Below the pieces are notes generated by a model. It searched no databases. It saw only the letters and a program-made list of their open reading frames with translations, and was not told where the DNA came from. Source: a phage. Taken from it: a stretch of DNA of 64,000 bases. The translations under genes and the position numbers were made by a program. Below, in pieces: positions 1-37,233 of this stretch; positions within the stretch are counted from its first letter, which is position 1; each line of letters begins with the position of its first letter. The stretch lies in NCBI GenBank assembly GCA_012646185.1, contig GCA_012646185.1_4706.1; one strand, written 5' to 3'.

Positions 1-193
1 CCTCTAAGTGTTTCAAGTAGTTCCTGAAATTTATAACGATATTTAGGATTGCTTAACGTGTAGCAGCAGCCATGTACCACGTTATACGCGTAATCAACTT
101 GTAAACCACGAACCTTCGGATCCAATGATAGATTCAACGGCGCATCATCAAAAATCCACGCTTCAATGTTCTTCTTGGATTCCTTCGTTAACA
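1..193 (-). CDS. hypothetical protein, 5' portion only (gene continues beyond window start)
   Basis: Minus-strand reading frame runs off the window edge; ATG at 191-193 (plus-strand cat). Confidence 0.35.
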
Positions 194-2329: not shown

Positions 2330-3655
2330 TCACTTCAAAAGCTTAGACACCGCCATGCTTCGCGCCATCGCAACGTCATACGCATCCATGATCGCGTCAC
2401 CGATAGCGGTATGACGGATCAACGGAATACCCATATCTGGATACTCTTTGGTGCCTAAGATGGATACCGGTTTGTCTTGATACGCGGCAACCATCGAACG
2501 AATATCCTGAACCTGGTTATAACGGCAGATTGGTTTGAAGCCCGCTTTACGGAACCAATGCTCTAATTGCGGCCAATCTGTTTCACCACGAGCAAGATAA
2601 TAGAAGGTATCTTTACCGTAGTATTCGGTCATTTTGTCACGAATACTGTTGACGAACGCATTTACTTCGGCGATGGCTTCTTTATAACCCATTGCCTTAC
2701 AATGTTGAAAACAATAGTCGCGCGCTTCCTTTGGTGCTTTGGTTTGCCACCATTCTACTGTTGATTCACTGATACGACCACCGTCAGCGATTTGACCATG
2801 AACGTCAGGGAAGATATCTATACGCGGACCGTTAACAATGGATTCTGGATTAGCCAGATCGAAGAACACGATACCGATTTCCAGCAATACTCCATTCTTT
2901 TCCAGACTAAGGTTTTCAACATCTAAACAAAATGCGGGCTTCTCTACCGCTAACGGCTCGAACGAATGGTTGCTGGTATCCGATTCGGTTTTAAGTTCGA
3001 CGACAGCCGGATCGGTATCCGTAGGTTTCAGTTCTACTACAGCATCATCGAGTCCCGATAACGAAAAATAGTCTTCGAAGAAATCGGATATCGTCATACC
3101 ATGCAAATTGATATCGCAATCTTCCAACCATTGCTTCAACTGGTGCTCACCGGCATGAATCGCTAAACGGCACGGTCCGGAACGATCATCTAGCGCTGCA
3201 TCGATCCAGAAGAAAGCGCGTATAAGTAAGTAAGGATTATACTCCGCGATGATTTCTTGGCTAGCCGAGAAATCGTACACCATTAGTTGTATTATTCCCT
3301 TACGCGTGTTATACGGATCAACTTTCAATCGACGCACTATTTCTTCTACGAATTCCAACGCGCGCGTGTACGAGGTGGACCCACCTTGTTCATACGAACA
3401 TATACCCGTCAAAAGTTCCTTATAGGACGCATATGGAACCATAGGCGATAATTTGTACGACAGTTCAGTATTGTAATTATCGCATAATTTCTTCGGGGCG
3501 ATAGCATCCTGTATCGCTGTAATAAACGCCGGTCCATCAATATCAAACAACCATCCTTGACGCCGGTATGCAGTGTACCGTAATAACGCACCGATAACTG
3601 CCTGGGGCGGTGTATATTCTTTCCCGTTAATTTCAAACAGTAGTTTGCTCATCAT
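2330..3655 (-). CDS. protein with C-terminal DEDDh-type 3'-5' exonuclease domain
   Basis: 441-aa ORF; Exo I-like FCLDVENLS, Exo III-like RHTAIGDAIMDAYD (H-x-A-x-x-D-A); internal repeat AVVELK x2. Confidence 0.55.
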   Translation of the reverse strand: MMSKLLFEINGKEYTPPQAVIGALLRYTAYRRQGWLFDIDGPAFITAIQDAIAPKKLCDNYNTELSYKLSPMVPYASYKELLTGICSYEQGGSTSYTRALEFVEEIVRRLKVDPYNTRKGIIQLMVYDFSASQEIIAEYNPYLLIRAFFWIDAALDDRSGPCRLAIHAGEHQLKQWLEDCDINLHGMTISDFFEDYFSLSGLDDAVVELKPTDTDPAVVELKTESDTSNHSFEPLAVEKPAFCLDVENLSLEKNGVLLEIGIVFFDLANPESIVNGPRIDIFPDVHGQIADGGRISESTVEWWQTKAPKEARDYCFQHCKAMGYKEAIAEVNAFVNSIRDKMTEYYGKDTFYYLARGETDWPQLEHWFRKAGFKPICRYNQVQDIRSMVAAYQDKPVSILGTKEYPDMGIPLIRHTAIGDAIMDAYDVAMARSMAVSKLLK

Positions 3656-3667
3656 AACACCTTTTCA

Positions 3668-12534: not shown

Positions 12535-13986
12535 ATGAAACTTAAACAAAGCTGGAAAGACGAACTTCTCGCGTTAGTAAATAGCAAAAACAGCTTACAG
12601 CTGACATTAGCCGACGTAAAATTTGAACTAACTGAACCGGTAAGCGAAGTGCCCGGAACGGTTGTCGTTACGATCAAACCGAACGATGATAGCCGTTACT
12701 TTAACGAGCAGTCTCTGACCTACATCCGTCGAGACATCGCTAAAAACTTCACCGGGATCCCGTTACGGGTTATCGTTAAAAATGATACCGCCGTAAGGGA
12801 TATCATCAATACGATTGCTGAACGTTACGGATTGGTATTTGACACAACCATCGACTTCCTCGAATCCGAGCTGAATAAGCAGATTACGTTCGAAGACACC
12901 GGTATTAAAGACATTACGGTTCCGGTTGCAAACACGTCTTATGTTTGGGCTGGTAATCTTCAGTTCAATATCGCTAACGATACGTTGAGCTTGATTACGA
13001 TCATCAAGCAAACCAATCTTACGAATCTGGTTTATCTGGATGGTGTTGAATCTAACACATCGGGTTCGTTACTATTAGCAACGACCTCGGTTATCGGCGA
13101 AAACGGAAATGCCGAAACAACTGAAGGTGTCCTTGACGCCGCGTACTTCCAGAATATCCTGAACGTCATGGTTCGTTATGGTGATATTACCAGCGAACAA
13201 ATGCAACAAGCAATGCAGACAATTAACGGAAGCGAAGACGCTCGTAGAGTAGAGGTGCGGTCATACGGTGACGCCGAATTACTGGTAACCACCAAGAAAG
13301 ATTGGGTTATCGGTAGCCTTAAGGGTGCTATGGTTGTTGGTCACGCTTCACCTAAACCAATCCAATACGTTCTTAAAACAAAAGGCGGCACCATTATATT
13401 GTCATTAGATGGTTGGACAAATGTCAATATCGATTGGGGTGATGGGAATAAGACGACGCAGGACTCAGGCGATAATGAATATCAGCACAATTATGCGGAC
13501 ACTACAGAACGTACGATCGTCGCTACGGGTACCCCTACCAACGTTGGAGATACAGACGTACAGCAAAGCTTCACCGGTGGTAACATCACTGAAATCGTTG
13601 ACTGGAACAACGGATTACCTAAGGCCCCATCATTACTTGCAGCGAACAGTTTAACTAAGGTTCCCGATTATATCCCGGCATACTGGACATCGTTAGAAGG
13701 TATGTTTACGCGATGCAGCGCTATTAACGACGTGAACATCACCAAATGGAACACCCGCAACGTTACTTCAATGAAGGACCTCTTCTACGGTTGCGCTACG
13801 TTCAACCAACCGATCGGTTCGTGGGATGTTTCGTCTGTTAAGAATGCAGACAATATGTTGTCTGGGTGCTTCGCGTTCAATCAGGATCTGAGTGGTTGGA
13901 CATTCCCGGCAGGCACTTCACACATCAACTACGACGCCATGACCGCCGCATGGCAGGCTGGTTATAAACCACACTTCACCGAGTAA
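12535..13986 (+). CDS. DUF285/BspA-like repeat protein (possible surface or host-interaction protein)
   Basis: 483-aa ORF; C-terminal tandem repeats MF.RC..N..I.KW.T.NVT.M..LF.GC..FNQ.I..WDVS.V.N...M..GC..FNQDLS.W. Confidence 0.6.
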   Translation: MKLKQSWKDELLALVNSKNSLQLTLADVKFELTEPVSEVPGTVVVTIKPNDDSRYFNEQSLTYIRRDIAKNFTGIPLRVIVKNDTAVRDIINTIAERYGLVFDTTIDFLESELNKQITFEDTGIKDITVPVANTSYVWAGNLQFNIANDTLSLITIIKQTNLTNLVYLDGVESNTSGSLLLATTSVIGENGNAETTEGVLDAAYFQNILNVMVRYGDITSEQMQQAMQTINGSEDARRVEVRSYGDAELLVTTKKDWVIGSLKGAMVVGHASPKPIQYVLKTKGGTIILSLDGWTNVNIDWGDGNKTTQDSGDNEYQHNYADTTERTIVATGTPTNVGDTDVQQSFTGGNITEIVDWNNGLPKAPSLLAANSLTKVPDYIPAYWTSLEGMFTRCSAINDVNITKWNTRNVTSMKDLFYGCATFNQPIGSWDVSSVKNADNMLSGCFAFNQDLSGWTFPAGTSHINYDAMTAAWQAGYKPHFTE

Positions 13987-13999
13987 AAAAAAAAAAAAA
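13985..13999. repeat. A15 homopolymer tract
   Basis: 15 consecutive A overlapping the stop codon of 12535-13986. Confidence 0.9.
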
Positions 14000-14011
14000 T
14001 AGATAGCATAT

Positions 14012-14045
14012 CTTCCTCCCTACCCATAACGGGCGGGGAGGAAGG
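14012..14045. terminator. GC-rich stem-loop between convergent genes
   Basis: cttcctccc...ggggaggaagg followed by ttt. Confidence 0.4.
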
Positions 14046-14061
14046 TTTATGTCAATTTAAC

Positions 14062-14400
14062 TTAGAACCAGAGTTCTTTCATGAAGTAGGCTTCCATATC
14101 GTAGATAAGCCACTCGTCAGGGATTTCTAAAGGATCGTCTTCGGTTAAGGTCAGCATGTGCAGGGCGAACGCACGCTTAATATCGTTCAGCAGTTTCTCG
14201 TCGTCGTAACCTTCGGGTAGTTTACGGTCTACCAGCTGGGTTTGTTTATAGACGTCGCGGAATGCTTCAGGGCTGTGTTTGTCCATCGGAAATTGTTCAG
14301 CAGCCTGAACCATAGAAAGCGTCCAGCTTACAACATTGTAACGCTCACCATTAATTTCACTGAACTGATCATCGATTAAACAGATTTGTTGTACGTTCAT
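14062..14400 (-). CDS. hypothetical protein
   Basis: 112-aa ORF. Confidence 0.45.
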   Translation of the reverse strand: MNVQQICLIDDQFSEINGERYNVVSWTLSMVQAAEQFPMDKHSPEAFRDVYKQTQLVDRKLPEGYDDEKLLNDIKRAFALHMLTLTEDDPLEIPDEWLIYDMEAYFMKELWF

Positions 14401-15290
14401 TCATTTTCTCCATTCTTATCTTGGTCGCAATCACACTCTTCGACGTCTTTCTTACTTAAACGTAAGACACCGAGTGCGGCATGCTTGAGTTCTTGCAACG
14501 CGCTTTTCAGCTGACCTTCTTCATCGAAATCAAAATACTTCTCGTTGTAGCTTAATGCTGGAATCATATTTACGAGAGGTTCGATGGCGGGCATCAGCAT
14601 TTCAATGACGACCTTAGGATCAACAAAGCGTTCAAACCCTTCAGGAAGTTTGCTCGCTACAACCTTATCGTTTTTGATGTAGAATTTGTTCTTGAACAGA
14701 TCGTCAAGAATAGCGTTCTCTTCATCCGTACGTTTTGCGTGAGGACGATCGATCATCTGTACAAACACACCATTCAACGCTTCAGGCAACGTCGGATTTT
14801 CACGAAGATAAGTTCCAGCCGGAATTTCAATATCGATCTTCGTCCACTCAACAACCTGGTGGTCTCGTGTGTAGATGACGTCAACTTCCCACGCCAGGCC
14901 ATCAGCGCTTTCTACGGTGTAACGTGTTTTCGCCTGGCCTTCAGGAGCCATGCGTTCGATCGCGTCAAACATCTCGACTGGAATTTCGACTTCGCTTTCC
15001 GTTGCATCACCTGGACCACGATACACCTTCGTGGTCATGATGTATTTCGGCTCTTCGTTATCGATCTGGATCGCACGTGCGCGCACCTGACCTTTCACAC
15101 CACCAACGGCTGTGTTATCAAACAACCATTGATGTTGCACCATATGTTCGATTTTTGATGCGACTTGACGAAGACGTTCAACACCGTCTTCAGCCAGTTT
15201 ACCAAAGAAGACCAGCTCACGTTCCTGCTGTGTCTCACCACTTAACATCATTAAATTGGCGATTTGTTTCACGCCTCTTACTTGTGACAT
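14397..15290 (-). CDS. hypothetical protein
   Basis: 297-aa ORF. Confidence 0.5.
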   Translation of the reverse strand: MSQVRGVKQIANLMMLSGETQQERELVFFGKLAEDGVERLRQVASKIEHMVQHQWLFDNTAVGGVKGQVRARAIQIDNEEPKYIMTTKVYRGPGDATESEVEIPVEMFDAIERMAPEGQAKTRYTVESADGLAWEVDVIYTRDHQVVEWTKIDIEIPAGTYLRENPTLPEALNGVFVQMIDRPHAKRTDEENAILDDLFKNKFYIKNDKVVASKLPEGFERFVDPKVVIEMLMPAIEPLVNMIPALSYNEKYFDFDEEGQLKSALQELKHAALGVLRLSKKDVEECDCDQDKNGENE

Positions 15291-35257: not shown

Positions 35258-35617
35258 CAAAATCTTCAGTATGAATCGCTACTTCATACCCGCAGCATTA
35301 CCTGCAGCTCCTGGTGTTACCAGGATGTTGAGAGTATATCATGCCCATATTCCAAATGGAACGTAGGACTTCCGCGCTGGATCTCGCTTGAGACCACTTA
35401 CTCGTTGAACGTTCTCCTAAACGGAGCTTCGCTGCTGATTGGACATTGTTACGTACGGTAGGCGTCCCATTAAAGGGATTTTCATTGAAGCCGCGTACAT
35501 CCGTTACCTTGTTTCTACCTTATCGGTTCCTCTTACGAGGCGTAACGGCTTTAGCCTATTCCAGCAATTCACGGAATGCATATTCTCCTTTTCAGGAGAT
35601 AAGGCCATGGCTCTGGC
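35258..35617 (-). ncRNA. putative self-splicing intron 1 (ORF-less, group I-like), boundaries approximate
   Basis: About 360-nt hairpin-rich sequence between DFDGD codons and resumption of beta-prime homology; tandem relative of intron 2. Confidence 0.5.
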
Positions 35618-35632
35618 ATCACCGTCAAAGTC
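35618..35632 (-). CDS. RNA polymerase beta-prime micro-exon encoding DFDGD (proposed)
   Basis: Minus-strand codons GAC TTT GAC GGT GAT; flanked by the two intron copies; exon 1 ends ...GYNA. Confidence 0.5.
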
Positions 35633-35982
35633 CACATATCTTCAGTATGAATCGCTACTTCATACCCGCAGCATTACCTGCAGCTCCTGGTGTTACCAGG
35701 ACGGAGAGATCATCTCATCACCCACGAAGGGTGTTCCGCGCTACCCTCAGCGAATTCGAGGGACATGATCGTTGAACCTTCCACCGATAATCGGTGGCTA
35801 GGCTGCTGATTAAACATTGTACGTTGGGGTGGCATCCTGGTTCAGGACTGTCGTTGAAGCCTCCCAACATCCACTCACTTATTTCCGCCTTATCGGCTCC
35901 CATAAGGGCAGAGTGGCTTTAGCCCGTCTCAGCAATTCACGGAATTCAAGCTCTTCCTTTCAGAAGGCAGGGCCTCATCTGA
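35633..35982 (-). ncRNA. putative self-splicing intron 2 (ORF-less, group I-like), boundaries approximate
   Basis: Follows the codon for Ala of ...KGYNA (exon ends in U); RNA ends in G just before GAC of DFDGD; track ORF reads 17 codons into it then stops. Confidence 0.5.
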
Positions 35983-37233
35983 AGCATTGTATCCCTTAAG
36001 GATCATCACGCTTAACCCGATGGTGTTATCCTGCGGATCGCGTTTAACCTTGGTGATTTCAAGACATTGGTTACTGCTTCGGTCAAGTGATGGGTTTCGA
36101 ACAAAGCCGCACACAATCCCATCGAACGGCGTATCAGCAATAAGCTCATCGTGCAGCTCGCTCATCATCGGATGATAATTACGGACATGTTCCGCAACGA
36201 ACGCACGCGCTGCTCTCGGTGAGTAACCACGATGGAATAACTTGGATTGGATATGTTCTTTATTGGTTAAAGTAAATGGTGCGTATGGGAAATGCAGATG
36301 ATAATAACGATGGTTCGCTGTTATCGAACTGATTACGGTACGCGTGGTGAATGGATGTAATGTACCTAATATGTTTTTACGTGTAATACCTTTCTTCTTA
36401 CCGATGAACTCATCGAAAATCGCTGCGTGGTATTGCAGTAGCTTCAATTGCACTTTCGCCATCCAGTTTTCTTTCTTTCTGGCGCTCAAAGGTGTTGTTG
36501 GATGATAGATACTGTTCAACGTACCAATAGCATCGATCGCACCTTCCATTTTGCTATCCGCATAACGACCGGTCGGCGTATTTTCGATAACGAACATCAT
36601 GGCTGCAGGAAAGCTGATATACTGACTGAAGAACTTATCACGATGGATACGGATGAATTCTCGTAGCGTGTCAACTTTCTCCATGTTCTTCGGTCCACGT
36701 AACGTCGGTCCTTTATACAAGATCTCCATGATGCGATCGAAGTTCTGTATAAAGCTATTTACGCCACGCCGTATCCCGAATACATCGAATTGCTGCTCCA
36801 GATAGTTCTTGAGTTCGATGGGTCGTTTTACATTTGGACGGTAACTGGCATCAATGAGCCACGTCATCGTTTCAAAGCTTTTGATATTCAACTCGCTTGC
36901 CAGCACGAGATGGACCAACGGGTTAATGAACGCATCGATTCCTTCAGGAACGCGCGCCCAAACCGTCGAACGAATCTCTTGTTCTGCTGGGTAGGTTACA
37001 ACCGTTTTACAGTTTGGACACACCGTGCCGAGTAGCTCACCACGATTGTAGAAACCACAACCACATTGTGGTGTGATATCCAACGTATCGCTGGAGTAAA
37101 CACGGGTGATAAAACTGTTTAATTTCTTCTTCTCTTCGACGACTTTTGTATCGTAATCATTCAACAAAATCGGCGTGAAAGGAAGTTCTGCGAGCTGTCT
37201 ATCGAAACTCACGATATCGAGCATGATGGCCAT
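35983..37233 (-). CDS. RNA polymerase beta-prime N-terminal subunit, exon 1
   Basis: Zn-finger CGCGFYNRGELLGTVCPNCKTVV (compare CxCGKY...C..CGVEV); NPSLDRSS (compare NRQPSLHK / NRAPTLHR); IGLSVMILKGYNA (compare LNLSVTSPYNA) immediately before the missing DFDGD. Confidence 0.65.

Follow-up and report, generated by a model that had tools for sequence, protein, structure and literature searches.

A run of fifteen adenines that shares its first two bases with the stop codon of a predicted host-recognition gene raises an obvious question: is it a switch, altering the end of the protein as bases are gained or lost, or does it belong to another kind of signal at the end of the gene? The run lies in a 64,000-nucleotide stretch of phage DNA (contig GCA_012646185.1_4706.1 of assembly GCA_012646185.1), referred to here in its full length as the window, which is 96.3% identical to Escherichia phage vB_EcoM_Goslar and collinear with Goslar 132.7-197.6 kb. 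Goslar itself is a nucleus-forming jumbo phage of E. coli belonging to the Chimalliviridae. The most likely explanation of the feature is an ordinary one, namely a variant of a terminator U-tract that overlaps the stop codon of a convergent gene, and the published Goslar genome already displays it, though without an annotation.

The junction and its flanking genes

The plus-strand gene that ends at the run had been labelled DUF285 in an earlier, sequence-only reading of the window, and Pfam agrees with this label, with a DUF7941 match (E=7e-25) covering residues 4-209 and a DUF285 match (E=5e-22) covering residues 385-456 of the protein, which is the homolog of Goslar gp161 (Table 1). In a recent structural preprint, Goslar gp161 is one of the DUF7941 proteins whose C-terminal part is made of leucine-rich repeats, and a host-recognition role was suggested (bioRxiv 10.64898/2026.04.21.720040); the homolog in the window is a predicted host-recognition virion protein. 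The C-terminal half of the protein is variable among relatives, and the 3' half of the gene shows 55-85% identity among them compared to at least 94% downstream. The convergent minus-strand gene, the gp162 homolog, has no Pfam match and by tblastn its homologs were found in Goslar alone; it is an ORFan restricted to Goslar-type genomes, and because of this the orthologous junction is not comparable across genera. According to the Goslar annotation (gp162-gp165), this gene closes a minus-strand unit to which a helicase and an RNA polymerase beta subunit also belong.

Only 75 nt separate the two convergent genes. On the plus strand the junction reads ...ACCGAG T AAAAAAAAAAAAAAA TAGATAGCATAT CTTCCTCCCTACCCATAACGGGCGGGGAGGAAG GTTTATG..., with the onset of the A15 at the second base of the stop codon of the plus-strand ORF 12535-13986, and positions 13985-14011 of the window correspond to Goslar 146584-146606. 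The anatomy given by the sequence-only reading, i.e. an overlap with the stop, a GC-rich stem-loop and a U-run downstream of the hairpin of the convergent gene, is the one found by direct reading. The U15 does lie beyond that hairpin, but its distance, which had been put at about 15 nt, measures 12 nt from the main stem.

The A15 is real and non-random, far beyond what chance would give. No other homopolymer in the 64-kb window exceeds 7 bases, the next A-run having 6 and the next T-run 7, and under a first-order model 0.0003 A-runs of at least 15 are expected in the window. Searches against the curated RNA families of Rfam 15 returned two sub-threshold matches only in 13400-14600 (22 bits, E ~0.5), and none at gathering score across the whole window.

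Table 1. Features of the gp161/gp162 junction in the window and sites of long homopolymers in the Goslar genome
Feature	Position	Strand	Description
DUF7941 + DUF285 (BspA-like LRR) gene, 483 aa	12535-13986	+	Goslar gp161 homolog, 95.9% identical
TAA stop of the DUF7941 + DUF285 gene	13984-13986	+	the homopolymer starts with its two A's
A15 homopolymer	13985-13999	A15 on plus	T15/U15 in minus-strand sense; direct reading
Spacer TAGATAGCATAT, 12 nt	14000-14011		A/U-rich; minus-strand reading AUAUGCUAUCUA, with WTATG element adjoining the stem
Hairpin core CTTCCTCCC-TA-CCC-ATAAC-GGG-C-GGGGAGGAAG, 33 nt	14012-14044	both	CCUCC/GGAGG arms
GTTTATG tail	14045-14051	+	'TTAT(G)' element of chimallivirus terminators, right after the hairpin
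Convergent 112-aa gene	14062-14400	-	Goslar gp162 homolog, 98% identical; stop 14062-14064
Order along the plus strand			TAA/A15, 12-nt spacer, hairpin 14012-14044, GTTTATG, convergent gene end 14062
Goslar A17	Goslar 40-56		gp249+ / gp1-
Goslar A9	Goslar 36823		gp36+ / gp37-
Goslar A9	Goslar 48086		gp43+ / gp44-
Goslar A11 and A10	Goslar 108101 and 108114		gp94- / gp93-
Goslar A11 (site studied)	Goslar 146584		gp161+ / gp162-
Goslar A12	Goslar 200204		gp218+ / gp219-

Hairpin, spacer and tail

The hairpin next to the run has 12+3 bp and a folding energy of -26 kcal/mol for 14005-14048 (44 nt), which places it among the strongest local structures in the 64 kb. As a whole, the 116-nt region folds with z=-4.9 on the plus strand, none of 200 shuffles being better. 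Folding of the same region in minus-strand sense gives z=-2.0, a modest gain over shuffles, and the centroid structure there keeps a hairpin of 8+4 bp at 17 nt past the stop of the gp162 homolog. The layout on the plus strand is …GGGGAGGAAG-GTTTATG and that on the minus strand is similar, …GGGAGGAAG-ATATG.

Canonical intrinsic termination requires a U-tract within 1-2 nt of the stem. For minus-strand transcripts, a stem-loop past the stop is present at 14012-14044, while no U-tract is found 0-2 nt from it: between the main stem and the U15 there are 12 nt, or 7 nt if a weak outer CAUA/UAUG extension of the stem is counted, and this extension is broken in assemblies where the spacer reads GCACAT. 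A further weak mini-hairpin of 5 bp, AGAUA/UAUCU, is predicted just before the U-run in the spacer variant of the window. The site was not called by a consensus terminator scan, and the Goslar annotation, which marks terminators elsewhere, has none between gp161 and gp162. RNA-seq of Goslar infection has been published without a reported terminator analysis (bioRxiv 10.1101/2023.09.20.558163), and no 3'-end mapping for Goslar was found in the literature.

The hairpin of this site is of the same type as other intergenic hairpins of Goslar, in which the combination of hairpin and WTATG occurs at 43 or more sites compared to 2-6 in Markov controls. This combination is also present at convergent junctions without a following gene, which indicates that WTATG is part of the signal and not merely a start codon. 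The GTTTATG tail also resembles the SD and ATG of a vestigial mini-ORF of three codons (ATG TCA ATT TAA).

Length variation among Goslar-like assemblies

Pattern scans of viral and metagenome collections, together with contigs encoding an identical gp162 protein, provided 19 usable, independent Goslar-like assemblies. The A-run is uninterrupted in every one of them and consists of 9 (one assembly), 10 (four), 11 (eight), 12 (three), 13 (one) or 15 (two) bases; the mode is 11, and Goslar itself has A11 at its gp161/gp162 site. Five genomes in which the C-terminus of the DUF285 protein is identical have 15, 13, 11, 12 and 11 A, and the length of the run therefore changes quickly. The sequence-only reading had considered the tract slippage-prone and had proposed a comparison of its length across isolates; the 19 assemblies support the slippage, and their comparison shows a length that is not invariant.

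What these changes do not affect is the protein. The in-frame stop is formed by the T and the first two A's in 19/19 assemblies, including the lineages in which the protein ends in …FTE*, …FDL* or …FQ*, and the called gene ends shift by exactly the length of the run. Since the run begins after the T of the stop, any run of at least two A leaves TAA in frame, and its length cannot alter the protein. The suggestion that a length change would alter the C-terminus of the DUF285 protein is refuted, as the same TAA ends the ORF in every assembly, and with it a frameshift or C-terminus switch is rejected at the DNA level. Considered as a phase-variation locus, the site displays length polymorphism (9-15 A) and neither a frame shift nor an effect on promoter spacing, for which there is no downstream gene on either strand.

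The elements adjoining the run are more constant in length. Substitutions affect a handful of positions in the spacer, which measures 12 nt in each of the 19 assemblies, and the hairpin is identical in 18 of them, the sole change being located in a bulge, unlike the sequence just past the hairpin, which is variable. With 18/19 hairpin sequences invariant, there is no covariation signal to test, and as all relatives are at least 85% identical, the argument from conservation is a short-range one.

Long runs across the Goslar genome

The whole Goslar record (237 kb) was assembled and its homopolymers counted, and merging of the duplicated record ends and of one tandem pair gave six sites (Table 1). 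The record strand contains eight A-runs of at least 9, where 1.9 are expected, and no T-runs of at least 9, where 3.2 are expected. Since nearly all Goslar genes are on the minus strand, majority-strand transcripts carry each of the long runs as a U-run. The same minus-strand order is found at all six sites, a gene stop being followed by a strong hairpin, 9-14 nt and then the U-run, and when 3000 random genome positions are taken for comparison, the 60 nt upstream of each run have a folding energy within the lowest 0.5%. With weak predicted outer pairs counted, the gap falls to 0 nt at Goslar 40-56 and 36823, which is the canonical layout, and to 6-7 nt at the others, including 146584.

Five of the six sites are at convergent junctions, and the remaining one is between two minus-strand genes, where no plus gene can play a part. 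Among the non-overlapping convergent junctions of Goslar, 5/17 have a long run on the minus-strand side and 0/17 on the plus-strand side, and seven Goslar convergent junctions do without a long run. Two of the other Goslar sites are conserved and length-polymorphic in a second genome, with A17 vs A13 and A12 vs A10. The hint of a role in minus-strand termination, which the sequence-only reading also contained, fits this genome-wide pattern.

Long T-runs in PCH45 and SPLA10

Related nucleus-forming phages also have unusually long T-runs that are restricted to the majority strand and often found at convergent junctions. The scanned 100 kb of Serratia phage PCH45, whose majority strand is the plus strand, contain eleven runs of T9-11, all on that strand and all following a stable hairpin, mostly directly and in three cases after a gap of 5-13 nt, while the longest A-run on the majority strand is 6. 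One of these, the T9 at 70314-70322, overlaps the TAA of a convergent gene ending at 70321, the same type of overlap as that seen in the window. Salmonella phage SPLA10 (50 kb scanned) has three T9-10 runs on the majority strand, each after a stable hairpin. A-runs of at least 8 are absent from the majority strand in the scanned 100 kb of PCH45 and 50 kb of SPLA10, which means that there are no long U-runs on the minority strand in either. Long U-tracts on majority-strand terminators are a habit common to these enterobacterial chimalliviruses, although the usual gap between stem and run is 0-1 in PCH45 and SPLA10, whereas the Goslar-like run is set back by 6-14 nt.

Similarity to known terminators and tracts

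Termination in nucleus-forming phages has been mapped only in phiKZ and 201phi2-1. The phiKZ terminator motif, obtained by mapping of transcript ends, is a CCYCC/GGRGG stem-loop followed by TTAT, expressed as 5'-BCCYCCCCHWWDGGGRRGGBYTTATKYYGT-3', and bidirectional regions are found between convergent genes (PMC10914365). The same type of motif (motif A) is present in 201phi2-1, with 15 bidirectional sites and eight terminators that are functional in vivo (PMC11512511). Chimalliviruses transcribe with their own polymerases (PMC10914365; bioRxiv 10.1101/2023.09.20.558163).

The Goslar-type signal resembles the phiKZ and 201phi2-1 motif in its pyrimidine-rich CCYCC arm, its purine-rich GGRGG arm, the TTAT(G) after the stem and its dozens of copies per genome. 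Compared by hand, the plus-strand CTTCCTCCC...GGGGAGGAAG-GTTTATG departs from the phiKZ expression by one mismatch and a one-base offset, which is a resemblance and not an exact match. The Goslar stem differs from that of phiKZ in being longer, with an inner CCC/GGG tier, and the long U-run is absent from the published motif.

The arrangement also resembles that of bidirectional Rho-independent terminators between convergent bacterial or phage genes, in which one GC-rich hairpin serves two convergent units, with an A-run on one side and a U-rich tail on the other; in the window it is compact enough to touch a stop codon, and at Goslar 4144 a small-scale version has TAAAAACC flush with a hairpin. 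The run in the window departs from these terminators in lying 12 nt from the main stem and in having a length of 9-15 instead of about 7-9, and the polymerases involved are presumably the phage's own. Homopolymeric contingency tracts of bacteria and phages offer the remaining comparison, since these too are long, pure and length-polymorphic runs beside a surface or host-recognition gene. Unlike them, the tract in the window comes after the stop-codon T, beyond the reading frame, and changes in its length neither shift a frame nor concern promoter spacing.

Alternative explanations

The possibility first suggested by the sequence, that of a phase-variable contingency site altering the C-terminus or expression of the DUF285 protein, has in its favour that the tract is hypervariable in length and lies at the end of a gene with a variable C-terminal half and predicted host binding. 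It is nevertheless extremely improbable, given that the run is 3' of the T of the stop, that the same TAA and homologous C-termini accompany every length from 9 to 15 A in 19/19 assemblies, and that like runs are also found where both neighbours are minus-strand genes and, elsewhere, 52 nt past the end of another plus gene. We also think it very unlikely that the A-run acts in the plus-strand mRNA, be it as a post-stop poly(A) for translation termination, in RNase E cleavage, in Hfq/S1 binding or in export from the phage nucleus. The run is indeed only 0-8 nt past the stop of the plus gene at four convergent junctions, but minus-strand genes, which are the large majority, never carry an A-run in sense orientation, as there are no T-runs of at least 9 on the record strand. 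Moreover, there is no plus gene at Goslar 108101, the run at Goslar 40-56 comes after the plus gene's own terminator hairpin, and those of PCH45 and SPLA10 are U-runs in the mRNA sense.

Two other readings deserve more weight, though both seem unlikely to us. The run could be a tolerated homopolymer, expanded by slippage and without present function, perhaps a relic U-tract that drifted from its hairpin and persists only because the site is non-coding in a group of relatives that is still young. That its length wanders from 9 to 15 even among near-identical genomes would be expected of such a relic, as would a 12-nt gap that is non-canonical, and many convergent junctions manage without such a run in a set of relatives that are all close. 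Neutrality does not account for the single orientation of all long runs in 237 kb, each behind a hairpin in the top 0.5% and at the end of a majority-strand unit, nor for runs that stay pure while the adjoining 12-nt spacer gathers substitutions, nor for the majority-strand-only bias shared by PCH45 and SPLA10. Pol III and archaeal polymerases terminate at oligo-U. By analogy, the U-run might be a hairpin-independent signal for stopping and releasing the divergent multisubunit RNA polymerases of the phage, in which case the upstream hairpin would only protect the 3' end or serve the opposite strand. At 9-14 nt from the main stems the runs are too far away for the canonical hairpin-invasion mechanism, they are unusually long (9-17), and the polymerases of chimalliviruses are, as cited above, their own. 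Set against this, six sites in 237 kb cannot constitute the general terminator of the phage, and at two Goslar sites and most of those in PCH45 and SPLA10 the run is flush with the stem, as in ordinary intrinsic terminators. A related and similarly doubtful proposal, also based on analogy, is that, where majority-strand transcription runs towards convergent genes, most of them virion genes, Goslar-like phages stop it by a distinct composite signal made up of a hairpin, a spacer fixed at about 12 nt and a run of U>=9, in which the U-run and not the hairpin would release a non-canonical multisubunit RNA polymerase. As transcription in the phage nucleus is not coupled to translation, Goslar-like phages may need such a fail-safe.

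Several further candidates were considered and rejected. A conserved small ORF passing through the run on the minus strand (MLSIFFFFF...) is discounted by the fact that its frame after the run changes with run length in relatives, and the three-codon mini-ORF on the plus strand after the hairpin varies in both sequence and length. A recombination-module boundary was considered, the break in homology coinciding with the run, but the other five sites flank conserved genes, e.g. the portal gene (gp36) and gp218. With regard to a T7 class II-like signal, the 'ATCTA' of the spacer is not conserved in Goslar (AACTA), and Goslar-type phages are not known to use a T7-type polymerase. A remnant of a retro-element or DGR was likewise considered and rejected. 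Matches to the hairpin pattern, which is palindromic, in several bacterial and metagenomic contigs, on both strands, are unrelated.

A probable U-tail on one side of a proposed bidirectional terminator

Set beside the observed anatomy, non-randomness, conservation, length polymorphism, genome-wide recurrence with strand bias and parallels in relatives, the reading that we favour, and consider reasonably probable, is that the A15 serves as template for a long U-tail, with which a bidirectional terminator between convergent units of a Goslar-like jumbo phage ends the minus-strand transcripts. Transcripts of the plus strand, covering a helicase gene and the DUF285 gene, would reach the CCUCC/GGAGG hairpin and then GUUUAUG, the conserved layout of chimallivirus terminators. 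Those of the minus strand, covering RNA polymerase beta, helicase, gp163 and gp162, would pass through the same near-palindromic hairpin and continue into GAUAUG, the A/U-rich spacer and U9-15. The U-run would leave the polymerase with a hybrid of weak rU:dA pairs only, and the polymerase would be kept from running antisense through the DUF285 gene. What we infer is that transcripts terminate and are released at the site, how the 12-nt gap is accommodated, which polymerase is involved and how a run 7-12 nt from the stem takes part.

The position and the variability of the tract can be placed within this terminator reading. The intergenic region is only 75 nt, which leaves the tract directly against the plus gene, where it provides the AA of the TAA stop, and because its length has no coding consequence, replication slippage varies it freely between 9 and 15. 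RNA polymerases slip on A/T runs from a length of about 9 upwards, and transcripts that cross the tract are probably heterogeneous in length, without any effect on coding.

Significance for Goslar-type phages

The main value of this analysis is as a correction: a homopolymer touching a stop codon beside a host-recognition gene looks like a phase-variation switch, and here it is not one. For annotation, the terminator reading, which we hold with some confidence, would add to Goslar-type genomes a terminator on the minus strand together with five sites of similar design, of a kind that standard terminator finders miss because the U-run is set back from the stem. Long tracts of this kind also explain assemblies that break or are mis-sized at such points. 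The new points are modest, consisting of the recurrent architecture of hairpin, spacer and long U-run, the strict majority-strand bias in three chimallivirus lineages and the fixed 12-nt offset. This bias of long U-runs, taken with the offset in Goslar, provides small clues to how the RNA polymerases of these phages terminate transcription.

Hairpins and long A-runs

Strong intergenic hairpins with shared features recur in the window as a family: their arms are CCTCC/GGAGG, and a CCC-loop-GGG inner tier and CATAA…/…TTATG flanks are frequent. They look like the counterpart in Goslar, the closely related E. coli jumbo phage, of the terminator motifs mapped in the related phages phiKZ and 201phi2-1. 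An identical hairpin copy, CCCTCCTCCAACCCGTAAGGGAAGGAGGAGGG, is common to several Goslar junctions, and the Goslar record annotates a terminator at only some hairpins of this type.

Past the hairpin that follows the A15 run at the DUF285 gene stop, the plus strand reads GGAGGAAGG-TTT-ATG TCA ATT TAA, i.e. a Shine–Dalgarno-like arm and then a mini-ORF of three codons. The mini-ORF differs in relatives, being ATG ACG ATT TAA or ATG TGG TTA TGA in some and continuing antisense into gp162 in others; it is probably the WTATG portion of the terminator motif and not a gene.

Outside the window, Goslar carries a tandem A11-CG-A10 between the co-directional minus-strand genes gp94 and gp93, where a 15-bp hairpin is followed by 9 nt and then by the A-run pair. 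This is the sole non-convergent member of the long A-run set, and it offers a good test case for the reading of such runs as the U-tails of minus-strand terminators.

Long A-run tracts are also, evidently, points where assemblies break, because both an N gap and the ends of the Goslar GenBank record sit at such runs. The gap, of about 100 N, lies in the metagenomic scaffold ERZ22322224 NODE_33 (L038), where it begins 8 nt past the gp162 stop and takes the place of the DUF285 gene's 3′ end as well as of the A-run and hairpin. The Goslar record both starts and ends at another long A-run (A17 and A16, respectively), with duplicated flanks.

Coordinates of the features described, in the window and in other records
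Feature	Window (nt)	Other record (nt)
CCTCC/GGAGG hairpins, approximate starts	~326, 1923, 8371, 10288, 19682, 20545, 23567, 34339, 37276, 40590, 49080, 55421, 58104	
Arm and mini-ORF (+)	14036–14062	
Tandem A11-CG-A10		Goslar 108101–108123
A17 at record start		Goslar 40–56
A16 at record end		Goslar 237292–237307
N stretch		L038 1847–1946
Segment without megablast match	2949–3663	Goslar 135612–136263
Intron/endonuclease region	35577–35984	Goslar 168164–169661
Long gene at helicase position		L035 and L039, locus 1–542 (cut at locus end)
DUF285 gene, 3′ half	13200–13986	

Variation among Goslar-like genomes

Around the exonuclease-like gene gp147 of Goslar, about 700 nt of the window have no megablast match to Goslar, amid surroundings that are 94–97% identical; this is a segment locally replaced or highly diverged. 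A 407-nt stretch of the window corresponds to 1497 nt in Goslar, which contain gp186, an HNH/NUMOD1 endonuclease gene, as well as an annotated group I intron, next to an RNA polymerase beta-prime gene. An Rfam search that included group I introns returned no family at gathering score across the entire window, and the window phage appears to be without this intron and homing-endonuclease insertion.

In two relatives (L035 and L039) the gene that lies upstream of the gp163 homologue, in the place of the 524-aa helicase (gp164 homologue), has a called length of 876 and 829 aa and matches LAGLIDADG_3 weakly, which suggests that some lineages have an intein or a homing endonuclease inserted in their helicase.

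The DUF285 gene stop and its A-run mark a point of homology break. Among Goslar-like genomes the gp161 homologue is only 55–85% identical over its C-terminal DUF285/LRR half (L004, L009, L010, L015, L017 and L018), while the N-terminal DUF7941 half retains ~90–100% identity, as does the sequence from the A-run onward throughout. This pattern is mosaic or diversifying, as is typical for genes that determine host range.
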